From the IMG/VR virus record IMGVR_UViG_3300034157_000063: a stretch of DNA of 42,916 bases; one strand, given 5' to 3'. Origin of the DNA: a virus. Its lineage: Duplodnaviria; Heunggongvirae; Uroviricota; Caudoviricetes. The notes below the pieces were generated by a model, which saw only the letters and a program-made list of their open reading frames with translations, was not told the origin of the DNA and made no database searches. Positions 22,112-35,273 of the stretch are shown piece by piece. Numbering within the stretch: the first letter of the stretch is position 1; every line of letters starts with the position of its first letter. The position numbers and the translations under genes are program-made.

Positions 22112-22200
22112 CTGACCAGAGTAGAGGTCAGTTATGGCCTCGAATTCTTGGATAGTAATTATCTTAGACCCTTTGAAGGCCACCTTCAGAGGGTTTTTTT
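22109..22200 (+). promoter_or_regulatory. Attenuator RNA structure (pause hairpin, antiterminator, terminator)
   Basis: 9-bp hairpin TAACTGACC/GGTCAGTTA (22109-22134); TGGCCTCGAA (22135-22144) complementary to TTTGAAGGCCA (22172-22182); terminator overlaps that segment. Confidence 0.75.
22168..22200 (+). terminator. Intrinsic terminator (attenuator terminator)
   Basis: ACCCTTTGAAGG-CCA-CCTTCAGAGGGT (12 bp, one G-U) ending in a run of 7 T. Confidence 0.9.
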
Positions 22201-22290: not shown

Positions 22291-22319
22291 TTGACAAAGA
22301 CGAAAGAAGTTGATAGAAT
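22291..22319 (+). promoter_or_regulatory. Second, strong sigma70 promoter for the tRNA array with an A/T-rich UP-like element
   Basis: TTGACA-N17-TAGAAT preceded by AAAATAATTTAAAATAG. Confidence 0.8.
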
Positions 22320-22371: not shown

Positions 22372-22459
22372 GGAAGATTGGTCGAGTGGCCGATGGCGTC
22401 AGTCTTGAAAACTGAAGGGTGTAATAGCTCCGTGAGTTCGAATCTCACATCTTCCTCCA
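22372..22459 (+). tRNA. tRNA-Ser(UGA), atypical U73 discriminator
   Basis: Acceptor GGAAGAT/ATCTTCC, anticodon arm TCAGT-CTTGAAA-ACTGA, long variable arm, TTCGAAT T-loop, encoded CCA. Confidence 0.95.
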
Positions 22460-22481
22460 AATTTAGTTGTAACTGTATTAT

Positions 22482-22564
22482 GGGTGTTTGGCAGAGTGGC
22501 CGAATGCGACGGGCTGTAAACCCGTATCGAGAGACGCGGAGGTTCGAATCCTTCAGCACCCACC
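22482..22564 (+). tRNA. tRNA-Tyr(GUA)
   Basis: GGGTGTT/AGCACCC, ACGGG-CTGTAAA-CCCGT, A73-CCA. Confidence 0.95.
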
Positions 22565-22586
22565 AAATTAGATGTAAATAGTATAT

Positions 22587-22674
22587 GGAAGCTTGGCCGA
22601 GTGGTTTAAGGCAACAGTCTTGAAAACTGTCGAGTGTAACAGCTCCGTGAGTTCGAATCCCACAGCTTCCGCCA
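22587..22674 (+). tRNA. tRNA-Ser(UGA)
   Basis: GGAAGCT/AGCTTCC, ACAGT-CTTGAAA-ACTGT, G73-CCA. Confidence 0.97.
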
Positions 22675-22697
22675 AATTAGATACAATGTTTTATTAT

Positions 22698-22781
22698 GGG
22701 GGCTTCGCATAGAGGCCGATTGCGGGAGACTGTAAATCTTCATCGAGAGACACGGTGGTTCGAATCCATCAGCCCCCACCA
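22698..22781 (+). tRNA. tRNA-Tyr(GUA)
   Basis: GGGGGCT/AGCCCCC, GGAGA-CTGTAAA-TCTTC, A73-CCA. Confidence 0.95.
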
Positions 22782-22807
22782 AATTTAGATACAATAGTAA
22801 CAACAAT

Positions 22808-22896
22808 GGACGCCTTTCCTGTCAGCGGTCTGTAAAACCGCCGCCTTAATAAGACAGGTCGGTTGGCGTGAGGTTCGAATCCTTGGGCGTCCACCA
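22808..22896 (+). ncRNA. D-arm-less tRNA-Tyr(GUA)-like RNA with an expanded variable region
   Basis: GGACGCC/GGCGTCC acceptor, GCGGT-CTGTAAA-ACCGC anticodon arm, TGAGG-TTCGAAT-CCTTG T arm, ACCA end; only 10 nt where the D arm should be; 27-nt variable region. Confidence 0.85.
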
Positions 22897-22917
22897 AATT
22901 AGTTGTAAACCGTATAT

Positions 22918-23005
22918 GGAAGCTTGGCCGAGTGGTTTAAGGCAACAGTCTTGAAAACTGTCGAGTGTAACAGCTCCGTGAGTTCGAATCCCACAGCTTC
23001 CGCCA
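22918..23005 (+). tRNA. tRNA-Ser(UGA), identical copy of 22587-22674
   Basis: 88-nt exact repeat by eye comparison. Confidence 0.97.
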
Positions 23006-23062: not shown

Positions 23063-23081
23063 TTTCATCGTCAAAAACTTG

Positions 23082-23109
23082 AAGAACAACGCAATGTTGT
23101 TCTTTTTTT
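23082..23109 (+). terminator. Terminator closing the tRNA array
   Basis: AAGAACAAC-GCAAT-GTTGTTCTT plus T-run. Confidence 0.85.
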
Positions 23110-23219: not shown

Positions 23220-24122
23220 ATGTATCAATTACAATCATTTGCAAAAAATGAAAAAGGCAGAGACTTCATTGTGGGTGATATACATGGTATGTATGACTCA
23301 TTAATGAAACTTCTCGAATCCGTTAACTTCGATAAAAACATTGATCGACTATTTTCTGTGGGTGATTTAATAGATCGCGGCCCCAAATCAATGGAAGTGC
23401 TTTACCTTAATAACCAGAGTTGGTTTTTCTCCGTATTAGGGAATCATGAAACCATGTTGCTCACTGGTCATTTATCGTATTCAAAAGATTGGGTGACGAA
23501 TTTAAGTAAAAAACAAAAAGAAAAATGTCTGGATATTATCAAGACCTTACCGATTGCTATTGAAATAGAAACCAGTCTTGGCCCTATTGGATTGGTTCAT
23601 GCACAAGTGCCTACCCAGTTCAATGACTGGCATGAGTTCAAACACTATCTCACTGCAGCTAACCTATCCTATGAAATGAGTTCTATTAATGATTCTGGTA
23701 GTGTGATTAGAGATGCATTGTGGGGGAGAAAGCGTATTTACAGAGAATTGAAAAAGAATGGCACCGCCTTTGCCAGAAAAGCTTACATCAAATTTATTAA
23801 AGATGGCTTATGGAATAGAACGACCTTATACAGAATCATTACAACCCGAAAAACATTGCCTTACATCAAGCATGGGATATCATTCTCATTCAGATACATC
23901 ATTGAAAAATTTAAGCGAAAATTACATCATCAAAGTTATATCGACAATATAGCCTATACCTTTCATGGACACACACCTGTTAAGAAACCATTACTGTTAG
24001 GTAACCAGTTCTTTATAGATACGGGTGCTGTGTATGGAATGAAGAAAAACAAACAAGGATCTTTAACCATGATAGAAATTTGTGAGGATCTGAAAGTCCA
24101 CACATTAATTATCGACCAATAA
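23220..24122 (+). CDS. Calcineurin-like metallophosphoesterase (lambda NinI/PphA-type Ser/Thr phosphatase)
   Basis: GDIHG, VGDLIDRGP, LGNHE, VHA, LWGR, HGHT, IDTGA. Confidence 0.9.
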   Translation: MYQLQSFAKNEKGRDFIVGDIHGMYDSLMKLLESVNFDKNIDRLFSVGDLIDRGPKSMEVLYLNNQSWFFSVLGNHETMLLTGHLSYSKDWVTNLSKKQKEKCLDIIKTLPIAIEIETSLGPIGLVHAQVPTQFNDWHEFKHYLTAANLSYEMSSINDSGSVIRDALWGRKRIYRELKKNGTAFARKAYIKFIKDGLWNRTTLYRIITTRKTLPYIKHGISFSFRYIIEKFKRKLHHQSYIDNIAYTFHGHTPVKKPLLLGNQFFIDTGAVYGMKKNKQGSLTMIEICEDLKVHTLIIDQ

Positions 24123-28404: not shown

Positions 28405-29310
28405 TTAAATTTTAATCATTTCGACAAGGATAAAATATTCTTTTAGTTCTTCAGTGGTGAGTTCATTAACATCACATTTTCTCATTTTCAACGTTTCACA
28501 AATTACATTTTTAGCTTCTGCTTTAAATTGATTTTCGAAAAAATCTGTTAACGATTGATTGTCAACGTCAATGCTATTTAACTTTCTTAAAAAACCATTT
28601 TTCAAGGACTGTTCACTGGCAGCAAAATACATCCTTTCAGGATTATTGATGGGAATGATACACATTATCTTATTATGTGCTGAATAGGGTAATTTAATTT
28701 TAAAATATGGCTTAATTGTTTCATCAGGTTCTACAAGATGAATAACTTCGATATTAATATAGGACTTCTTAAAATAGTTCTTTTGAGCACCCATACCTTT
28801 TTGAAGAATATTATTGAAACTGACTGTTGCAATATTTTTGTCTTTAAATTTTAATTCATTGAAATAACCATTATTGGAGAAATGAGTGTTCATGTGTTGG
28901 TTATATTGTTTCATTTCAACACTGTTTAGCAATCCCGATTCAATACCTTTTTTAATGAAGATATCGACAATATTGAGAGCTTTCTCAAAATCTGGTTTAT
29001 ATTTTTCTTGAAAAAAATCAGCTATCTCATGACATTGCTGGCTCATAATAGACACCATCGTAGGCCCGTTAAACATAACACTGATTGTCGGGAAGTAGTG
29101 TAACTTTTCATAACTGCTTTTGATTCTATTTTCAAAAGAAATTTCCATAATCCATTTGTTATCTGCAGTTGTTGCTTTATAAATTGTGGTTGCAATAACA
29201 TTATTTGAAAACTTCGCTTGTTCTTCATTGTATTGATTAAATACAAATACAGGTGAAAGGGATCTCGCAAAATGATTAACAGATGACTTATTCAGTAATG
29301 TTTTAAACAT
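28405..29310 (-). CDS. Seven-paralog array member 7
   Basis: FNNILQK, KKSY, PYFKIKLPYS; ends ELKEYFILVEMIKI; start after GGAG. Confidence 0.85.
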   Translation of the reverse strand: MFKTLLNKSSVNHFARSLSPVFVFNQYNEEQAKFSNNVIATTIYKATTADNKWIMEISFENRIKSSYEKLHYFPTISVMFNGPTMVSIMSQQCHEIADFFQEKYKPDFEKALNIVDIFIKKGIESGLLNSVEMKQYNQHMNTHFSNNGYFNELKFKDKNIATVSFNNILQKGMGAQKNYFKKSYINIEVIHLVEPDETIKPYFKIKLPYSAHNKIMCIIPINNPERMYFAASEQSLKNGFLRKLNSIDVDNQSLTDFFENQFKAEAKNVICETLKMRKCDVNELTTEELKEYFILVEMIKI

Positions 29311-29381
29311 GAAAAACTCCACAATTATGACTAATTAATGGAGTATTATACCATATAACACTTAGCTAAGTCCATGTTTTG

Positions 29382-30305
29382 TTATATTTTAATCATCTCG
29401 ACCAGCATAAAATAATCTTTTAATTCATCGGGAGATAAATTATCTAATTCAGTTTTCTTAATTTTCAATGTTTTAGAAATCGTTGTTTTTATTTCATTTT
29501 CGATTTCACCCTTGAAATAGGCTGTTAATGCTTCTTTTTTTATGGGCATTGATAGTATTTTATCAATAGGCGTATATCTTAACGAATCATCATCACCCAC
29601 TAAATACATGGTGTCCACCCCACTGATTGGAATAACATAGGTGTTTTTATTGGTAGCTGACGTAGGTAATTTAATTTTGAAGTAAGGTTTCACATCATTG
29701 TTTGAATCCACTAAATGAATGATACCTACACTAATGAATGATTTTTTGAAATGTGTTCCATTTTTACCAGACCCTTTTTGAAGAACATTGTTAAAGGTTA
29801 TTCTGGCATAGTTTTTATCCCATATTGAAATAGTTCCATGATAGTGATTGATGTGCATGTGTGAAATCATGTGTCGTTTGTATCTTTTTACAGCAACACT
29901 CTTAAACAGACCAGAGTCAAGACCTTGTTCAATAAATATATCCAGAACATTAAAGACTTTATCGAAGTCAGGTTGATAGAGGTTTTCAAGAAAGTTGGCA
30001 ATGTCTACACTTTGTTGATTTCTTTCAGCCACTGATTCCTTAGTGAAATGGGTTAGCTTCTTTTTTGTGTCTTTTTCGAATGAAATATAGGGATAAAACT
30101 TTTTTCTAATAATGTTGCCTTGTTTTGTTCCGTAAAATTGTGTTACTAATTGCCAGCCTTCGTTAGCTTGTGCTATATATTTTGTAGATTCGCAATCATT
30201 AAAACCATCGTAATAATCATCGGTGTATTTTGAGTATTTAAACAACGGCTCAAAGATTTTGAGTATATTGTTGGCTTCTTGATGGTTCTTGTATGAGTTA
30301 AACAT
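29382..30305 (-). CDS. Seven-paralog array member 6
   Basis: Same motifs; ends ELKDYFMLVEMIKI. Confidence 0.85.
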   Translation of the reverse strand: MFNSYKNHQEANNILKIFEPLFKYSKYTDDYYDGFNDCESTKYIAQANEGWQLVTQFYGTKQGNIIRKKFYPYISFEKDTKKKLTHFTKESVAERNQQSVDIANFLENLYQPDFDKVFNVLDIFIEQGLDSGLFKSVAVKRYKRHMISHMHINHYHGTISIWDKNYARITFNNVLQKGSGKNGTHFKKSFISVGIIHLVDSNNDVKPYFKIKLPTSATNKNTYVIPISGVDTMYLVGDDDSLRYTPIDKILSMPIKKEALTAYFKGEIENEIKTTISKTLKIKKTELDNLSPDELKDYFMLVEMIKI

Positions 30306-30331
30306 AATATTCTCCAAAACGTTCCATTCGA

Positions 30332-31258
30332 TTAAATCTTCAGCATTTCAACGAGTACAAAATATTCTTTCAATTCTTCTGGTGTTATTCCATCCATATC
30401 TGATTTATTAATTTTCAATGTTTTAGAAATAGACGTTTTCATTTCTTTGTAAAACTCTTTATCAAAAAAATCTTTTAAATCTGTTTCGTCCATTGAAATT
30501 GAAGGCAATGTATCAATGCATTCTCTTCTCAACTTGTCATCGTTTGCCATGAAGTAGACAATAGGCTTTCCTGTTAATGGAATCACACATGTTGCTTTTC
30601 TAGACTCTGAATATGGTAATCTTATTTTGAAATAAGGGTGCATTGTGTTATCAGAGTGAGCTAGATAATCAATAGATACACTAATGTAGGATTTTTTGTA
30701 GTGAGTAGTGCCACGATAACCAGAAACCCCTTTCTGCAGGATATTGTTAAAAGTCACGGTGCCAAAGTTATTGTCGCCTATGGTAATAGTTCCAGAATAA
30801 TGATTGGTGTTTAAATGAGTTTTCATCACTTTTTTGTATTTTCTCTCTGCAAGGCTTTTGAACAATCCGCATTCAATTCCTTTCGCAACAAAGAGTTTAA
30901 GGACAGTAAACATTCTGTCAAAATCTGGATTATAGGTCTTTTGTAAGAGTTCTACAATTGCTTTGCCTTTTAGTCTTCTGTCTTTATGTTGTTCTTCGTC
31001 AAAATTACGAACACGCTCGCCCTGTTGTCTAAATTTAATTTCTGGATAATAGACTTTTACATCTTCTTTTGAGTTTTTATTGTTATAAAATGTAAGAATT
31101 AAAGCCCAGTTATCATCGGTTATGGCTGTATAGGTGGTAGCACAAAACCCTAAATCGGAAGAGTTAACGTTGACATCAAATTTCACAAAATTAAATACTG
31201 ATGAAAACAAAGTGACCAGATGGTTGGCTTCTAGGTGGTTCGGATAGGTATTAAACAT
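30332..31258 (-). CDS. Seven-paralog array member 5
   Basis: Same motifs; ends ELKEYFVLVEMLKI. Confidence 0.85.
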   Translation of the reverse strand: MFNTYPNHLEANHLVTLFSSVFNFVKFDVNVNSSDLGFCATTYTAITDDNWALILTFYNNKNSKEDVKVYYPEIKFRQQGERVRNFDEEQHKDRRLKGKAIVELLQKTYNPDFDRMFTVLKLFVAKGIECGLFKSLAERKYKKVMKTHLNTNHYSGTITIGDNNFGTVTFNNILQKGVSGYRGTTHYKKSYISVSIDYLAHSDNTMHPYFKIRLPYSESRKATCVIPLTGKPIVYFMANDDKLRRECIDTLPSISMDETDLKDFFDKEFYKEMKTSISKTLKINKSDMDGITPEELKEYFVLVEMLKI

Positions 31259-31324
31259 AATATACTCCAAAAATATTTAATAATTGTATCATAAACAAAT
31301 AATGATTGCCATTGTTTTTACAAT

Positions 31325-31352
31325 AAAAAAAAGACCTTTTCTAAGGTCTTTT
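31325..31352 (-). terminator. Intrinsic terminator inside the paralog array
   Basis: A-run-GACCTT-TTCT-AAGGTC-TTTT. Confidence 0.7.
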
Positions 31353-31365
31353 AATCAGCGTAATC

Positions 31366-32292
31366 TTACATTTTAACCATTTCTAACAAAATAAAATGAT
31401 TTCTTAATTCATCGTCCGCGAATTTAATCAAATCATTTTTTTTAATCTTTAATGTTCTTGACAGTACACTTATTATTTCGTTTCTAAATTCTTCTTTGAA
31501 GAAAGATTCCAAATATGTTTTATCTGTTGAATGTTGTTGGAGGTTATCAATAAATCCTTTTCTTAAATGATGATCGTCATTTGCAATATACATTTTTGAG
31601 CCATCAAAAGAAACCATACAGTTTATTTTCTTATGCGAAGAATATGGGAGTTTTATTTTAAAATAAGGCGTAATTTCATTGTCTGAACTGACCATGTATG
31701 CAATATCTATGCTTAGATGAGATTTTTTAAAATGGCTTTCCCCAGCTCTCAATGTTTGAAGCACATTATTAAATTTAATTTTTGCGAATACAACGCTATT
31801 AAAGAATAATCTATTATATCCTATTCCGTCTTCATACCTACGAAATTGTGTCATTGAATGTCTTTTATATGGCATAATTTTAACATTGTTATAGATACCA
31901 GTCTCAACACCTTGTTGAAGAAATATTTCTATAATCTCGATTGCTCTATCAAAGTTAGGATTGTATATATTTTGGAAATATTCAATGATGCTATCAGCTT
32001 GAACTTTATCAGCATCTTTTTCAGTATATGTTGATCTATCTCCATGTGAATATCTTTTATCTCTATGTTTTTCAAATTCAACACATGGATAATAATACCT
32101 AGTGTCTACATCTGTTTTCTCACCTTGTTCAAAAGCGGCAACGATATTCCAAGCATTATCATTTTCAGCTACATAGTTTGACTTATCATACTTGTCATTA
32201 CATTTTTCTTGAAACTTTGTAAAATTTAATACTGGGTTGAATAACTCTACTAATTTATTCATCTCAATGTAATTAGGACATTTTTTAAACAA
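31366..32292 (-). CDS. Seven-paralog array member 4
   Basis: Same motifs; TTG start after GGAG. Confidence 0.85.
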   Translation of the reverse strand: MFKKCPNYIEMNKLVELFNPVLNFTKFQEKCNDKYDKSNYVAENDNAWNIVAAFEQGEKTDVDTRYYYPCVEFEKHRDKRYSHGDRSTYTEKDADKVQADSIIEYFQNIYNPNFDRAIEIIEIFLQQGVETGIYNNVKIMPYKRHSMTQFRRYEDGIGYNRLFFNSVVFAKIKFNNVLQTLRAGESHFKKSHLSIDIAYMVSSDNEITPYFKIKLPYSSHKKINCMVSFDGSKMYIANDDHHLRKGFIDNLQQHSTDKTYLESFFKEEFRNEIISVLSRTLKIKKNDLIKFADDELRNHFILLEMVKM

Positions 32293-32376
32293 GATGTTCT
32301 CCAATATATTTATAAAATTAGCATAACATAAAAAATAAGAAATACTATTGTATACATATAATTTTATAGAATTTTC

Positions 32377-33258
32377 TTAATATTTTATCATATCAACAAG
32401 AATAAAATAATTTTTTAATTCATCTTGTGACAACTTCTTTAGATCTGCTTTTTTCATTTTTAAGGTTTTTGAAATTGAGTTTATGACTTCAATATTAAAA
32501 ATGTTTTTGAAATATAAATTTAAGGACTCATCATCTGTTTGATGAGCTTCTAAATGATCAATGAAGTTAAGTTGAAATTCATGATCTGTTTTAGTGAAAT
32601 ACATTTTAGAACAATCAAAAGATATAATACAGTTTACCTTTTTATGTGATGTATAAGGGAGTCGAATTTTAAAATATGGCATAAGTTGTTTATCGCTACC
32701 TACTAGGTATATGAAATCTATTGACATGACAGATTTTTTATAATTAGTTTCACCAGATCTTAAACTTTGAAGAATGTTATTAAAATTTATACTGGCATAA
32801 ATTCGATTGTAAACTCCATGTATATGTGTTCTTGAATGTCTTTCATATTTTTTTAGAGTAATCTTTTGAAATATTCCAGAATCTAAACCCTGCTTGGTAA
32901 AAATTTCAAGAATATTTATCATTCTGTCAAAATTAGGTTTATAAAGTTTATGAAAATAATTAATAAATTCGTCTGATCTTTGAATTTCTATTTTTCGTTC
33001 TTCGTCTGTTAAAGTAATATACCTATATTGTTCTTCATAATTTTTAAATTTGATAGATGGCGATTTTGCTAAATACCAATCATGTTTTTCAAAATGTTTT
33101 GGATAATTTATAACAATTCTCCATTTATCACTGGCTTCTGCAGTATAATTTACACCGTAATGTATATCAGTTTCTGTAAATTTTTCAAAATTTAAAAATG
33201 GTTTAAATAATTCAATAAAATTATTACTTTCGACATGAAAATCATATTTTTCAAACAC
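32377..33258 (-). CDS. Seven-paralog array member 3
   Basis: Same motifs; GTG start after GGAG. Confidence 0.85.
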   Translation of the reverse strand: MFEKYDFHVESNNFIELFKPFLNFEKFTETDIHYGVNYTAEASDKWRIVINYPKHFEKHDWYLAKSPSIKFKNYEEQYRYITLTDEERKIEIQRSDEFINYFHKLYKPNFDRMINILEIFTKQGLDSGIFQKITLKKYERHSRTHIHGVYNRIYASINFNNILQSLRSGETNYKKSVMSIDFIYLVGSDKQLMPYFKIRLPYTSHKKVNCIISFDCSKMYFTKTDHEFQLNFIDHLEAHQTDDESLNLYFKNIFNIEVINSISKTLKMKKADLKKLSQDELKNYFILVDMIKY

Positions 33259-33343
33259 TCGACACTCCAATATATGTTATACAATTAGCATAACATTAAA
33301 AACAATAAATACCATTGTATAGATATATTAAAGTATGATATTT

Positions 33344-34252
33344 TTAAATTTTTACCATTTCTACAAGAATAAAATATTCCTTCAATTCATCAGTTGTTAA
33401 TCCAGTTAATTCAGACTTCTTAATCTTTAATGTACCCACAATCACATTCTTGACTTCATTTTGTAGTTCTTTTTTAAAGAATGCTGATAGGGTCTTGTCA
33501 TCAATTGCGACTTCTTCATTCAGTGTGTCCACATATTTTTCTTTTAACGTATTATCTGATTCGGCCATATACATTTTAGAGCTTCTGCACAATGGAATAA
33601 CACAGGTAATTTTCTTTGTTGCTGAATAAGGTAGTCGAATCTTAAAATAAGGTTTCAACTCATTGTCAGAACTAAGTAGGTGGACTATTTCTATATTGAT
33701 GTAAGCTTTCTTGAACGATCTACCTTGACACTTACTATCTTTCTGCAGCACTTTATTGAATAATACAGTAGCACAATTAGTGTCATTAAATGATATTTGA
33801 TGATAATACTTATGCGTCCCAAAATAGTTACTAATATGTTGTGTTTCATCTTTTAATTTCACATTATTAAAAATTCCAATGTCAACGCCTTCTTTTATAA
33901 AAATATCAATAACATTAAGCACCTGATCAAAATCAGGAGTATACTTATTTTGAAATAGTTCAGTGAGTTCAGCCACCTTATCTCGTTTAATAGCCGTTAC
34001 ATAATCAGATACAGTTCGTTCAAACTTAACTTCTGGATAATAATGTTTTTGGTCGTGTTTACTTCTAAAACGGTTATCGAATGACACAACCATTTTCCAA
34101 TTATCGTCAGTGTTGGCTGTATAAATTGTTGTCCCAATATCCCTTTCATAGCTTTTATGATTTTCTTCATGGAATGTGGTAAAGTTAAATACGGATGAAA
34201 CTTGTTCAACCAGTTTATTAACATCCTCGCAATTTTTATATTTTTCAAACAT
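33344..34252 (-). CDS. Seven-paralog array member 2
   Basis: Same motifs; ATG start after GGAG. Confidence 0.85.
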   Translation of the reverse strand: MFEKYKNCEDVNKLVEQVSSVFNFTTFHEENHKSYERDIGTTIYTANTDDNWKMVVSFDNRFRSKHDQKHYYPEVKFERTVSDYVTAIKRDKVAELTELFQNKYTPDFDQVLNVIDIFIKEGVDIGIFNNVKLKDETQHISNYFGTHKYYHQISFNDTNCATVLFNKVLQKDSKCQGRSFKKAYINIEIVHLLSSDNELKPYFKIRLPYSATKKITCVIPLCRSSKMYMAESDNTLKEKYVDTLNEEVAIDDKTLSAFFKKELQNEVKNVIVGTLKIKKSELTGLTTDELKEYFILVEMVKI

Positions 34253-34288
34253 AATTGGCTCCAAATAATTATTGATTACTACAAAAGT

Positions 34289-35206
34289 TCAAATGTTCAC
34301 CATTTCAACGAGAACAAAATATTCTTTCAAGTCATTAATAGTTAAATCTTTCAAGTCTGTTTTACTAATTTTTAAACGAGCTGCAATTGTGCTTTTGATT
34401 TGTTTCTCAAATAATTGTGTAAACATATCATGAATATTAGATTCATTTAAAGCTTCTGATGTTTGTTGGTCTATATGGTATTTTTCCAAATGGTTATCAT
34501 CCAAAAAGAAATACCCTTTATCACCCGTCATTGAAAGTACACAACTGATTTTCTTATTTTCAAAATAAGGTAACCGAAGTTTAAAATAAGGGTGCATTGT
34601 ATTATCAGAATGCACCAAGTAAATAACATCCACATTGATGTAAGATTTCTTAAAATGCTTTGCCTGTATACCATCGCCTTTTTGTAGAATATTGTTAAAA
34701 TATACATCTGCGATGTTTTGATCTGTCATGTGAATTTTTTTGTCATAATGATGAGATAAAACATGAGATTCAATGCTTTTTTTGTAGTATTTTTTATCGA
34801 CTACGTTAATCACGCCAGCTTGGGTGCCTACATCAATGAACCAGTCCATAATTTCAGTAATTTTATCAAAATTAGGGGTATACATAGTTTCTAACATACG
34901 AACAATAGATCTAACATCATTTCTAATCTTATCAGAGTTGAAGACTTGGACTTCATTGTCAACAAAAACGAGTTTGGCAATCTTATGTTTAAGTTGCTGC
35001 TGGTTTTTATGGGTTTTAAGTGGATTCATGAATGTTACTTCAATATCTCTTTGACCTACTTGTGATGTGGCCTCATACATAGTTTTAAAGACATAACCGT
35101 GCCGGTCAGCGTAGTTTTCTTCTTTGAAGGTGTTAAATTGAAAGTCGTTTTTCAATGTCATTAACAGATTGTTGACTTCAATATGATTTGGATAGATTTT
35201 AAACAT
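34289..35206 (-). CDS. Seven-paralog array member 1
   Basis: Same motifs; ATG 35206 after GGAG. Confidence 0.85.
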   Translation of the reverse strand: MFKIYPNHIEVNNLLMTLKNDFQFNTFKEENYADRHGYVFKTMYEATSQVGQRDIEVTFMNPLKTHKNQQQLKHKIAKLVFVDNEVQVFNSDKIRNDVRSIVRMLETMYTPNFDKITEIMDWFIDVGTQAGVINVVDKKYYKKSIESHVLSHHYDKKIHMTDQNIADVYFNNILQKGDGIQAKHFKKSYINVDVIYLVHSDNTMHPYFKLRLPYFENKKISCVLSMTGDKGYFFLDDNHLEKYHIDQQTSEALNESNIHDMFTQLFEKQIKSTIAARLKISKTDLKDLTINDLKEYFVLVEMVNI

Positions 35207-35273
35207 AACATTCTCCACAAATATTTGCCATATTGTATCATAATTCATTAGAAAACGCTATTGAAATAGATGC

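Follow-up and report, generated by a model that had tools for sequence, protein, structure and literature searches.

The locus described here raises the question of what a tRNA-like element without a D hairpin is doing among the ordinary tRNA genes of a phage: whether it is the relic of a tRNA gene, a tRNA-shaped molecule with another role, or a tRNA built to a different plan. The element spans 89 nt (22808–22896) of a 42,916-nt stretch of viral DNA, which as a whole we refer to as the window. It lies in an operon composed only of Ser and Tyr units, where it makes up a trio of tRNA-Tyr genes with two cloverleaf neighbors (Table 1), and it is placed like a sixth gene of that operon. The spacers between all six units are similar (21–26 nt, each starting with AAATT), and it is because its spacers match those of its neighbors that the element reads as the sixth gene of the array. 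A terminator-like site (22166–22196) precedes the operon promoter, and the class II cloverleaf of this operon is 84 nt long as compared with 89 nt for the element. No TyrRS is encoded within the window. The majority of the surrounding ORFs fall into no Pfam or PHROG family, a single one gave a match to a virion structural protein, and seven consecutive minus-strand ORFs of 297–319 aa (28405–35248) resemble a tandem paralogue family. Directly downstream of the operon is a plus-strand ORF (23220–24122) for a NinI-like calcineurin-type phosphoesterase (metallophosphatase; PF00149; phrog_246, E = 5e-56), which we found no reason to link to the element. A BLAST search with the whole array against phage and plasmid collections returned generic tRNA-Ser matches only.

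Standard tools do not recognize the element. ARAGORN called the five neighboring tRNAs and missed the gene at 22808–22896, an outcome anticipated in a preliminary description of this DNA, which had expected either a pseudogene call or none. Rfam likewise gave the gene no match at the gathering score, the best sub-threshold match being tRNA-Sec, at 23.7 bits where the cut-off is 47, and the RNAfold z-score of the single sequence was an unremarkable −1.1. Rejection by both ARAGORN and Rfam, together with so ordinary a z-score, is what one would expect of a decaying tRNA-Tyr pseudogene whose D arm was deleted and whose remaining complementarity arose by chance.

Inspected base by base, the sequence bears out the elements that the preliminary description had listed for 22808–22896. 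An acceptor stem (GGACGCC, 22808–22814, paired with GGCGTCC, 22886–22892), A73, CCA, an anticodon arm with GUA, and a TTCGAAT T-loop are present; the D hairpin is missing, and its place is occupied by the ten bases TTTCCTGTCA (22815–22824). Also as described, the variable region is expanded to 27 nt (22842–22868) and bounded by a CGCC/GGCG stem (here, P2), and the CCTGTC of the D-arm replacement is complementary to the GACAGG of the variable loop (here, helix H), the proposed 6-bp pseudoknot. Because the 3′ strand of H sits between the two strands of P2, the helices cross, making this a true pseudoknot. In order, the molecule thus comprises an 8-bp acceptor strand, UU, the 5′ strand of H, one base, the anticodon hairpin, the 5′ strand of P2, an A-rich linker, the 3′ strand of H, a linker starting with UYGG, the 3′ strand of P2, one base, the T arm, the other acceptor strand, A73, and CCA.

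Table 1. Features of the tRNA operon and of the pseudoknotted gene within the window.
Feature	Position	Strand	Remarks
Sigma-70-like promoter of the tRNA operon (TTGACA, 17 nt, TG-TAGAAT)	22291–22319	+	11/12 consensus matches, extended −10; consensus match only
tRNA operon: Ser(UGA), Tyr(GUA), Ser(UGA), Tyr(GUA), pseudoknotted Tyr, Ser(UGA)	22372–23005	+	ARAGORN and Rfam for the five cloverleaf genes
Cloverleaf class II tRNA-Tyr(GUA) neighbors	22482–22565 and 22698–22781		Within the same operon
Acceptor stem 5′ strand, 8 nt including U8	22808–22815	+	Pairs with 22885–22892; 99.2% paired, double changes at 8/8 pairs (78 relatives)
UU linker	22816–22817	+	Fixed by search pattern, conservation uninformative
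Helix H 5′ strand CCUGUC, continuous with the anticodon stem, putative substitute for a D-stem strand	22818–22823	+	Pairs with 22853–22858
Single A between helix H and anticodon stem (position-26-like)	22824	+	
Anticodon arm: 5-bp stem GCGGU/ACCGC, loop CUGUAAA	22825–22841	+	Anticodon GUA at 22832–22834
Helix P2 5′ strand CGCC, class II variable-arm stem	22842–22845	+	Pairs with 22865–22868
A-rich linker UUAAUAA in the variable loop	22846–22852	+	Family: 57% A, 25% U, mostly 7–10 nt
Helix H 3′ strand GACAGG, inside the variable loop	22853–22858	+	Between both P2 strands
Linker UCGGUU with conserved UYGG motif	22859–22864	+	UYGG after helix H in 60/78 members
Helix P2 3′ strand GGCG	22865–22868	+	
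T arm: 4-bp stem GAGG:CCUU, loop UUCGAAU	22870–22884	+	T stem 94% paired
Acceptor stem 3′ strand, 8 nt	22885–22892	+	MAFFT alignment pairing counts
Discriminator A73 and encoded CCA	22893–22896	+	A73 at 22893, CCA at 22894–22896
Terminator-like hairpin, operon end	23081–23105	+	

The evidence for this fold comes from relatives, which were sought in IMG/VR, in a set of one genome per prokaryote species, and in JGI metagenomes with patterns whose only constrained features were TTCC, the CTGTAAA loop, the T-loop, and the spacing; complementarity was never required. Parsing by fixed anchors left 78 distinct sequences whose acceptor stem is intact, and a 74-nt group of pattern matches proved to be ordinary tRNA-Pro(UGG). 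In a MAFFT alignment of the 78 relatives built without structure information, standard pairs occupied 97.5% of cells, as compared with 71% in column shuffles and 40–51% when partner columns were slid by 1–3, and double-sided changes were found at 23 of 27 pairs. The check proposed earlier for CCTGTC:GACAGG, covariation among homologs, was positive: H (CCNNNN with NNNNGG) was 97.2% paired, with double changes at five of its six pairs. P2, formed by the first four and last four bases of the variable region, was 96.2% paired, with double changes at three of four, and some family members lengthen it to 5–6 bp. Alignment-free counts gave the same picture, as a perfect H partner was present within the same sequence in 71 of 78 cases, versus 13.6% when another sequence's region was substituted, and perfect P2 pairing in 66 of 78, versus 10.9% in cross-sequence controls. 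A covariance model built on the MAFFT alignment added ∼25 relatives, for more than 100 distinct sequences in all, and placed the family at ≥70 bits and cloverleaf tRNAs at ≤34 bits.

Further evidence comes from close relatives. An exact 24-mer search led to one IMG/VR contig of 437 kb, and the 89-nt copy is identical in 437-kb (L002/L172) and 604-kb (L119) contigs, around which flanks are 70–75% and orthologous cloverleaf genes 77–94% identical. With 100% identity maintained between genomes whose flanks have diverged this far, and with more than 100 distinct relatives sharing the plan and showing compensatory changes in every helix, the pseudogene reading is refuted. Covariation in H and P2 across the 78 relatives establishes, at the level of sequence comparison, a selected pseudoknotted fold and no random decay, as the preliminary description had argued from the complementarity. 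It is because of these 78 distinct relatives, and not because of single-sequence energy, that the fold can be said to exceed chance.

In fact, single-sequence energy points to a simpler structure. The RNAfold minimum-energy structure encloses the anticodon hairpin in a nested CCUGUC:GACAGG helix and is missing P2, and nearest-neighbor energies are almost equal for the core with H (−29.4 kcal/mol) and the core with P2 (−29.2 kcal/mol), each helix contributing ∼6 kcal/mol to the core. H might accordingly form alone, lengthening the anticodon arm of a three-way junction, with P2 incidental and no pseudoknot. We dropped this nested structure, and consider it very unlikely, because P2 covaries independently: CG, UA, GC, and AU are all found at two of its positions at 96% pairing, the cross-sequence controls seldom reproduce it, and H and P2 share no bases. 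The covariation supports both helices of the pseudoknot and cannot tell whether they form at the same moment.

Around the pseudoknot, the remainder of the molecule is tRNA-like with an altered division of its stems. Because position 8 covaries with position 65, we assign 8 bp to the acceptor stem and 4 bp to the T stem, U8 (22815) pairing with G65 (22885); the 8:65 pair is UG in 38 members, GC in 26, AU in five, CG in five, and UA in three. An 8 + 4 bp arrangement keeps a 12-bp acceptor/T branch, the pairs of which are all covarying or invariant. The unpaired part of the D-arm replacement is consequently UU alone, followed by the 5′ strand of H; members found by the covariance model alone carry UC, AC, or GU at this site. 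The position-26-like base that follows H correlates with the first base of the variable region (A/C in 29 members, G/U in 39, other in 10). Pairing in the anticodon stem reaches 99%, each of the five pairs shows double changes in the 78 relatives, and the 7-nt loop has U33, a purine at 37, and A36-A37-A38. The T arm carries G52-G53:C61-C62 and a T-Psi-C-type loop, both of which were fixed by the first patterns, so that their invariance in the 78 members is not independent evidence. A U51–U63 mismatch in the T stem recurs in 18 of 78 members; the region of T-stem pair 51:63 tunes EF-Tu affinity. The Y of UYGG and T-loop base 57 are associated (Fisher p = 0.002), an association that is confounded by G+C content and seen in the low-GC half only and that gives at most a hint of a tertiary pair. 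One divergent member (L070:1730–1822; 51 bits), on a 440-kb contig with terminal repeats, has a 7/5 acceptor/T branch with a 5-bp H and a 4-bp P2, and the knot is thus independent of the 8/4 branch.

The identity elements of the molecule are those of tyrosine. Bacterial tRNA-Tyr is identified by A73, G34, U35, a long variable arm, and G1:C72, and the gene has A73, the GUA anticodon, G1:C72, and the P2 stem at the position of the variable arm. Of the 78 GUA members, 75 carry A73 and 73 carry G1:C72. The GUA anticodon and its loop were themselves fixed by the first search patterns; in an anticodon-free search, GUA was still dominant among the members returned. Rare members of the family have other anticodons. 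Both members with the Cys anticodon GCA (L103:1219–1307 and L231:8433–8523) have U73, which is the main CysRS determinant; a UCU (Arg) member (L219:660–747) has G73, and a member with a UGA anticodon (L161:3694–3784) has A73. The discriminator therefore appears to covary with the anticodon, which points to charging. CCA is encoded in 57 of 78 members, phage copies having it and chromosomal array copies being without it, a pattern that resembles that of real tRNA genes.

The content of the arrays points in the same direction. Among the 43 arrays in which at least 10 ARAGORN tRNAs surround a member, 41 are without a cloverleaf tRNA-Tyr and two have one. In three arrays (L229, with 37 tRNAs; L244, with 29; and L104, with 26, on a Leptonemataceae chromosome), ARAGORN tRNAs account for the 19 other amino acids, and the sole tyrosine gene is the pseudoknotted one. 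Because the gene fills the Tyr slot and its discriminator tracks its anticodon, we favor a role as an adaptor. Three functions had been suggested in the preliminary description, of which the nuclease-resistant Tyr adaptor fits these observations best, in its adaptor part, whereas a nuclease decoy or inhibitor and a TyrRS/EF-Tu ligand are both disfavored by the array-slot evidence. We also considered that the pseudoknotted gene might be the sole tRNA-Tyr of a bacterium and rejected this, as five of five MAG genomes carry one cloverleaf Tyr elsewhere on the chromosome. In one Planctomycete family, 7 of 121 sampled genomes carry the gene, which fits carriage on mobile arrays.

Phage carriers are more varied. 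The cultured Pseudomonas phages Lyrsu01-03 have an unannotated member adjoining a tRNA-Pro, and in Pseudomonas phage Rembedalsseter (45 kb) an unannotated member, scoring 26.3 bits against RF00005 (cut-off 29), is the only tRNA-like gene of the genome; GenBank phage records leave the family gene unannotated. Some arrays consist of two isotypes with several sequence-diversified copies of each, Tyr always being one of the two: Glu and Tyr in L161 and L120 (with a tmRNA gene nearby), Gln and Tyr in L141 and L146, and Ser and Tyr in the window, L002, L119, and L130. The window and its close relatives hold two or three cloverleaf Tyr genes besides the pseudoknotted copy, which is therefore not needed to complete the set here. 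A full-length TyrRS is found in the 437-kb relative, 16 kb from its array (L198:1411–2670; TIGR00234, 381 bits), and a TrpRS is likewise encoded in the 437-kb IMG/VR contig (L199:1495–2490).

The close relatives of the window also indicate how the gene changes. In the 437-kb contig the identical copy sits in a differently composed Ser/Tyr array, and in a 520-kb relative (L130) the copy differs in the anticodon stem only, where UCGCU with AGCGA leaves all five pairs intact; three of the five pairs are altered, two on both sides and one on one side. The cloverleaf Tyr genes of these related genomes also differ mainly in the anticodon stem. Across 27 close family pairs, change was fastest in the A-rich linker (10.8%), the anticodon stem (10.7%), and the acceptor stem (7.6%) and slowest in P2 (4.6%), H (4.0%), and the T stem (0%). 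Hypervariability of the anticodon stem can be seen in single pairs, but since the A-rich linker and acceptor stem also change fast, these rates do no more than suggest it. The knotted copy thus seems to evolve under the regime of the ordinary Tyr copies, with the knot held constant.

Such parallel diversification would also suit a tRNA-shaped decoy or inhibitor that occupies a tRNA-Tyr-directed nuclease, TyrRS, or some other tRNA-binding protein and has no role in translation, as the anticodon stem diversifies in step with the cloverleaf Tyr genes as if an attacker read the anticodon arm. The two ordinary Tyr genes beside it in the window, which make it redundant as an adaptor, and the small phages that have it as their only tRNA-like gene would be accommodated as well. 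Yet a decoy would not be expected to replace cloverleaf Tyr in 41 of 43 large arrays, three of which are complete only with it, nor to combine A73 with GUA and U73 with GCA, a correspondence that points to charging. Moreover, a decoy should retain the body that its attacker recognizes, and the body is the part that has changed. We consider a decoy unlikely.

The tyrosine-adaptor reading is thus the one we pursue, and on it the gene probably encodes a functional tyrosine tRNA of non-cloverleaf form. In such a molecule, H would stack on the anticodon stem to give a rod of 6 + 1 + 5 layers, about the length of the D stem, tertiary layers, and anticodon stem of a cloverleaf, and this rod may substitute for the D stem and tertiary layers so that the L shape is kept. 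In effect, one D-stem strand and a GG-bearing loop would have been relocated into the variable loop, where the unpaired UYGG could provide the guanines that dock with the T-loop, its GG replacing G18 and G19 at the elbow. The RNA would be excised from the operon transcript like its neighbors; TyrRS would charge it by recognizing A73, G1:C72, the GUA anticodon, and the variable-arm stem, and the charged RNA would decode UAY codons on the ribosome. Recognition of tRNA by the known bacterial translation factors and by RNase P probably involves the D/T elbow. The elbow drawn here is a conjectural reconstruction, which counts against a working tRNA, as do the missing D-loop and the missing U8/D-loop modification sites.

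An altered core on a molecule that keeps its charging elements could also indicate a tyrosine donor for a non-ribosomal reaction, with the odd body serving to avoid EF-Tu. Staphylococcal cell-wall synthesis uses a special tRNA-Gly, and cyclodipeptide synthases also use tRNAs; the recurrent U51–U63 mismatch, in a T-stem region that tunes EF-Tu affinity, would be in keeping with such a role. However, no conserved partner enzyme adjoins the gene, whose neighbors are other tRNAs in all contexts examined, and it is found in arrays of lytic-type giant phages and completes 20-amino-acid sets as Tyr. We give a non-ribosomal donor very little credence and return to the elongator tRNA.

Pseudoknotted viral tRNA-like structures exist at the 3′ ends of TYMV and BMV, that of BMV being tyrosylated. 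They share with the present gene a pseudoknot that builds a tRNA-like shape, but they are plant virus 3′ ends with the pseudoknot in the acceptor stem and no decoding, whereas the present gene stands free, has an anticodon, and carries its pseudoknot in the core. The closest conventional molecule is class II tRNA-Tyr(GUA) (RF00005), with which the gene shares the CUGUAAA loop with GUA, A73, G1:C72, the encoded CCA, a UUCRAAU T-loop, a variable-arm stem between the anticodon and T stems, its operon position, and its spacers. It differs in having no D hairpin or D-loop, an 8/4 rather than 7/5 acceptor/T branch, and a variable loop of ∼19 nt that pairs with the strand preceding the anticodon stem to form the pseudoknot.

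Adaptors without a D hairpin are otherwise known from animal mitochondria (PMC9427863, PMC7609411). Those D-armless tRNAs (tRNA-Ser(AGY) and those of nematodes and mites) are shrunken, have a short unpaired replacement loop, and are organellar, with co-adapted synthetases and EF-Tu (PMC9427863, PMC7609411); the present gene, by comparison, is 89 nt long, has its replacement strand paired through a pseudoknot, and occurs in phages and bacterial hosts. According to a 2024 paper, all known bacterial tRNAs are cloverleaves (PMC11551756). Acceptor/T branches of 8/5, 9/4, 8/4, or 9/3 have been described for tRNA-Sec and allo-tRNAs (PMC5389517), which share with our gene the 8-bp acceptor stem, shortened T stem, and long variable arm; these tRNAs keep the D arm and a serine-type identity, whereas the gene described here has no D arm and combines A73 with GUA, and we found neither a tyrosine nor a pseudoknotted form in that report. 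Our literature search found no paper describing a pseudoknotted tRNA design free of the D hairpin.

Why a phage would carry such a molecule may be approached by analogy with phage T5, whose tRNA-Tyr overcomes the tRNA-Tyr-depleting retron Eco7 PtuAB (PMC11555353), although the mode of action of the retron effector on tRNA-Tyr is not yet settled (PMC12819146). In both cases something other than codon usage may account for the retention of a phage-borne tRNA-Tyr, and the Ser/Tyr, Glu/Tyr, and Gln/Tyr arrays with diversified stems recall T5. The T5 tRNA-Tyr differs in being a cloverleaf that acts by supply. The likely value of the pseudoknotted gene would be that of a tyrosine adaptor whose altered body escapes attack on, or dependence on, the ordinary tRNA-Tyr core, as in tRNA-targeting defense; by the same analogy, an attacker reading the D arm or elbow might be evaded. 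This anti-defense purpose is possible, and it is the least supported step of our account, which we rate well below the structural and adaptor claims.

We incline, with some reserve, to a broader proposal. The family may constitute a second natural elongator-tRNA architecture in bacteria and phages, with a pseudoknotted core accepted by RNase P, TyrRS, EF-Tu, and the ribosome; it could have spread on mobile arrays and phages by evading anti-tRNA-Tyr factors, and it may occasionally have been re-assigned to a Cys, Arg, or UGA anticodon by a change of anticodon and, in some cases, also of discriminator. Animal mitochondria apart, the cloverleaf is regarded as the universal form of tRNA. If the proposal is true, bacterial translation accepts a second tRNA architecture, and genetic code work gains a ready-made, orthogonal-looking scaffold. 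The family would further help in finding out which factors attack or read the body of tRNA-Tyr when phage and host are in conflict, and its members in cultured Pseudomonas phages make it directly testable. An annotation blind spot would be exposed as well, in that arrays seemingly without tRNA-Tyr would in fact have one.

Other tRNAs of the arrays that harbor family members are unusual as well. Bacterial tRNA-Leu is normally class II; in chromosomal arrays of Leptospirales and Planctomycete MAGs (L104:6588–6814; L093, L101), tRNA-Leu is just 73–77 nt long with short variable loops, and one of these short tRNA-Leu has C at position 33. ARAGORN reported a tRNA with a two-base anticodon in a Leptospirales array (L095:3260–3333) and, in the vicinity of a family member on a 147-kb viral contig (L065), a tRNA of suppressor type with the anticodon CUA ("Pyl"). 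Arrays on Flavobacteria-like contigs (L097, L141, and L146) contain class I isotypes of unusual length (Gln, 88–89 nt; Lys, 90 nt; Ile, 93–97 nt; Glu, 89 nt), an indication that further array tRNAs may have long variable arms or carry inserts.
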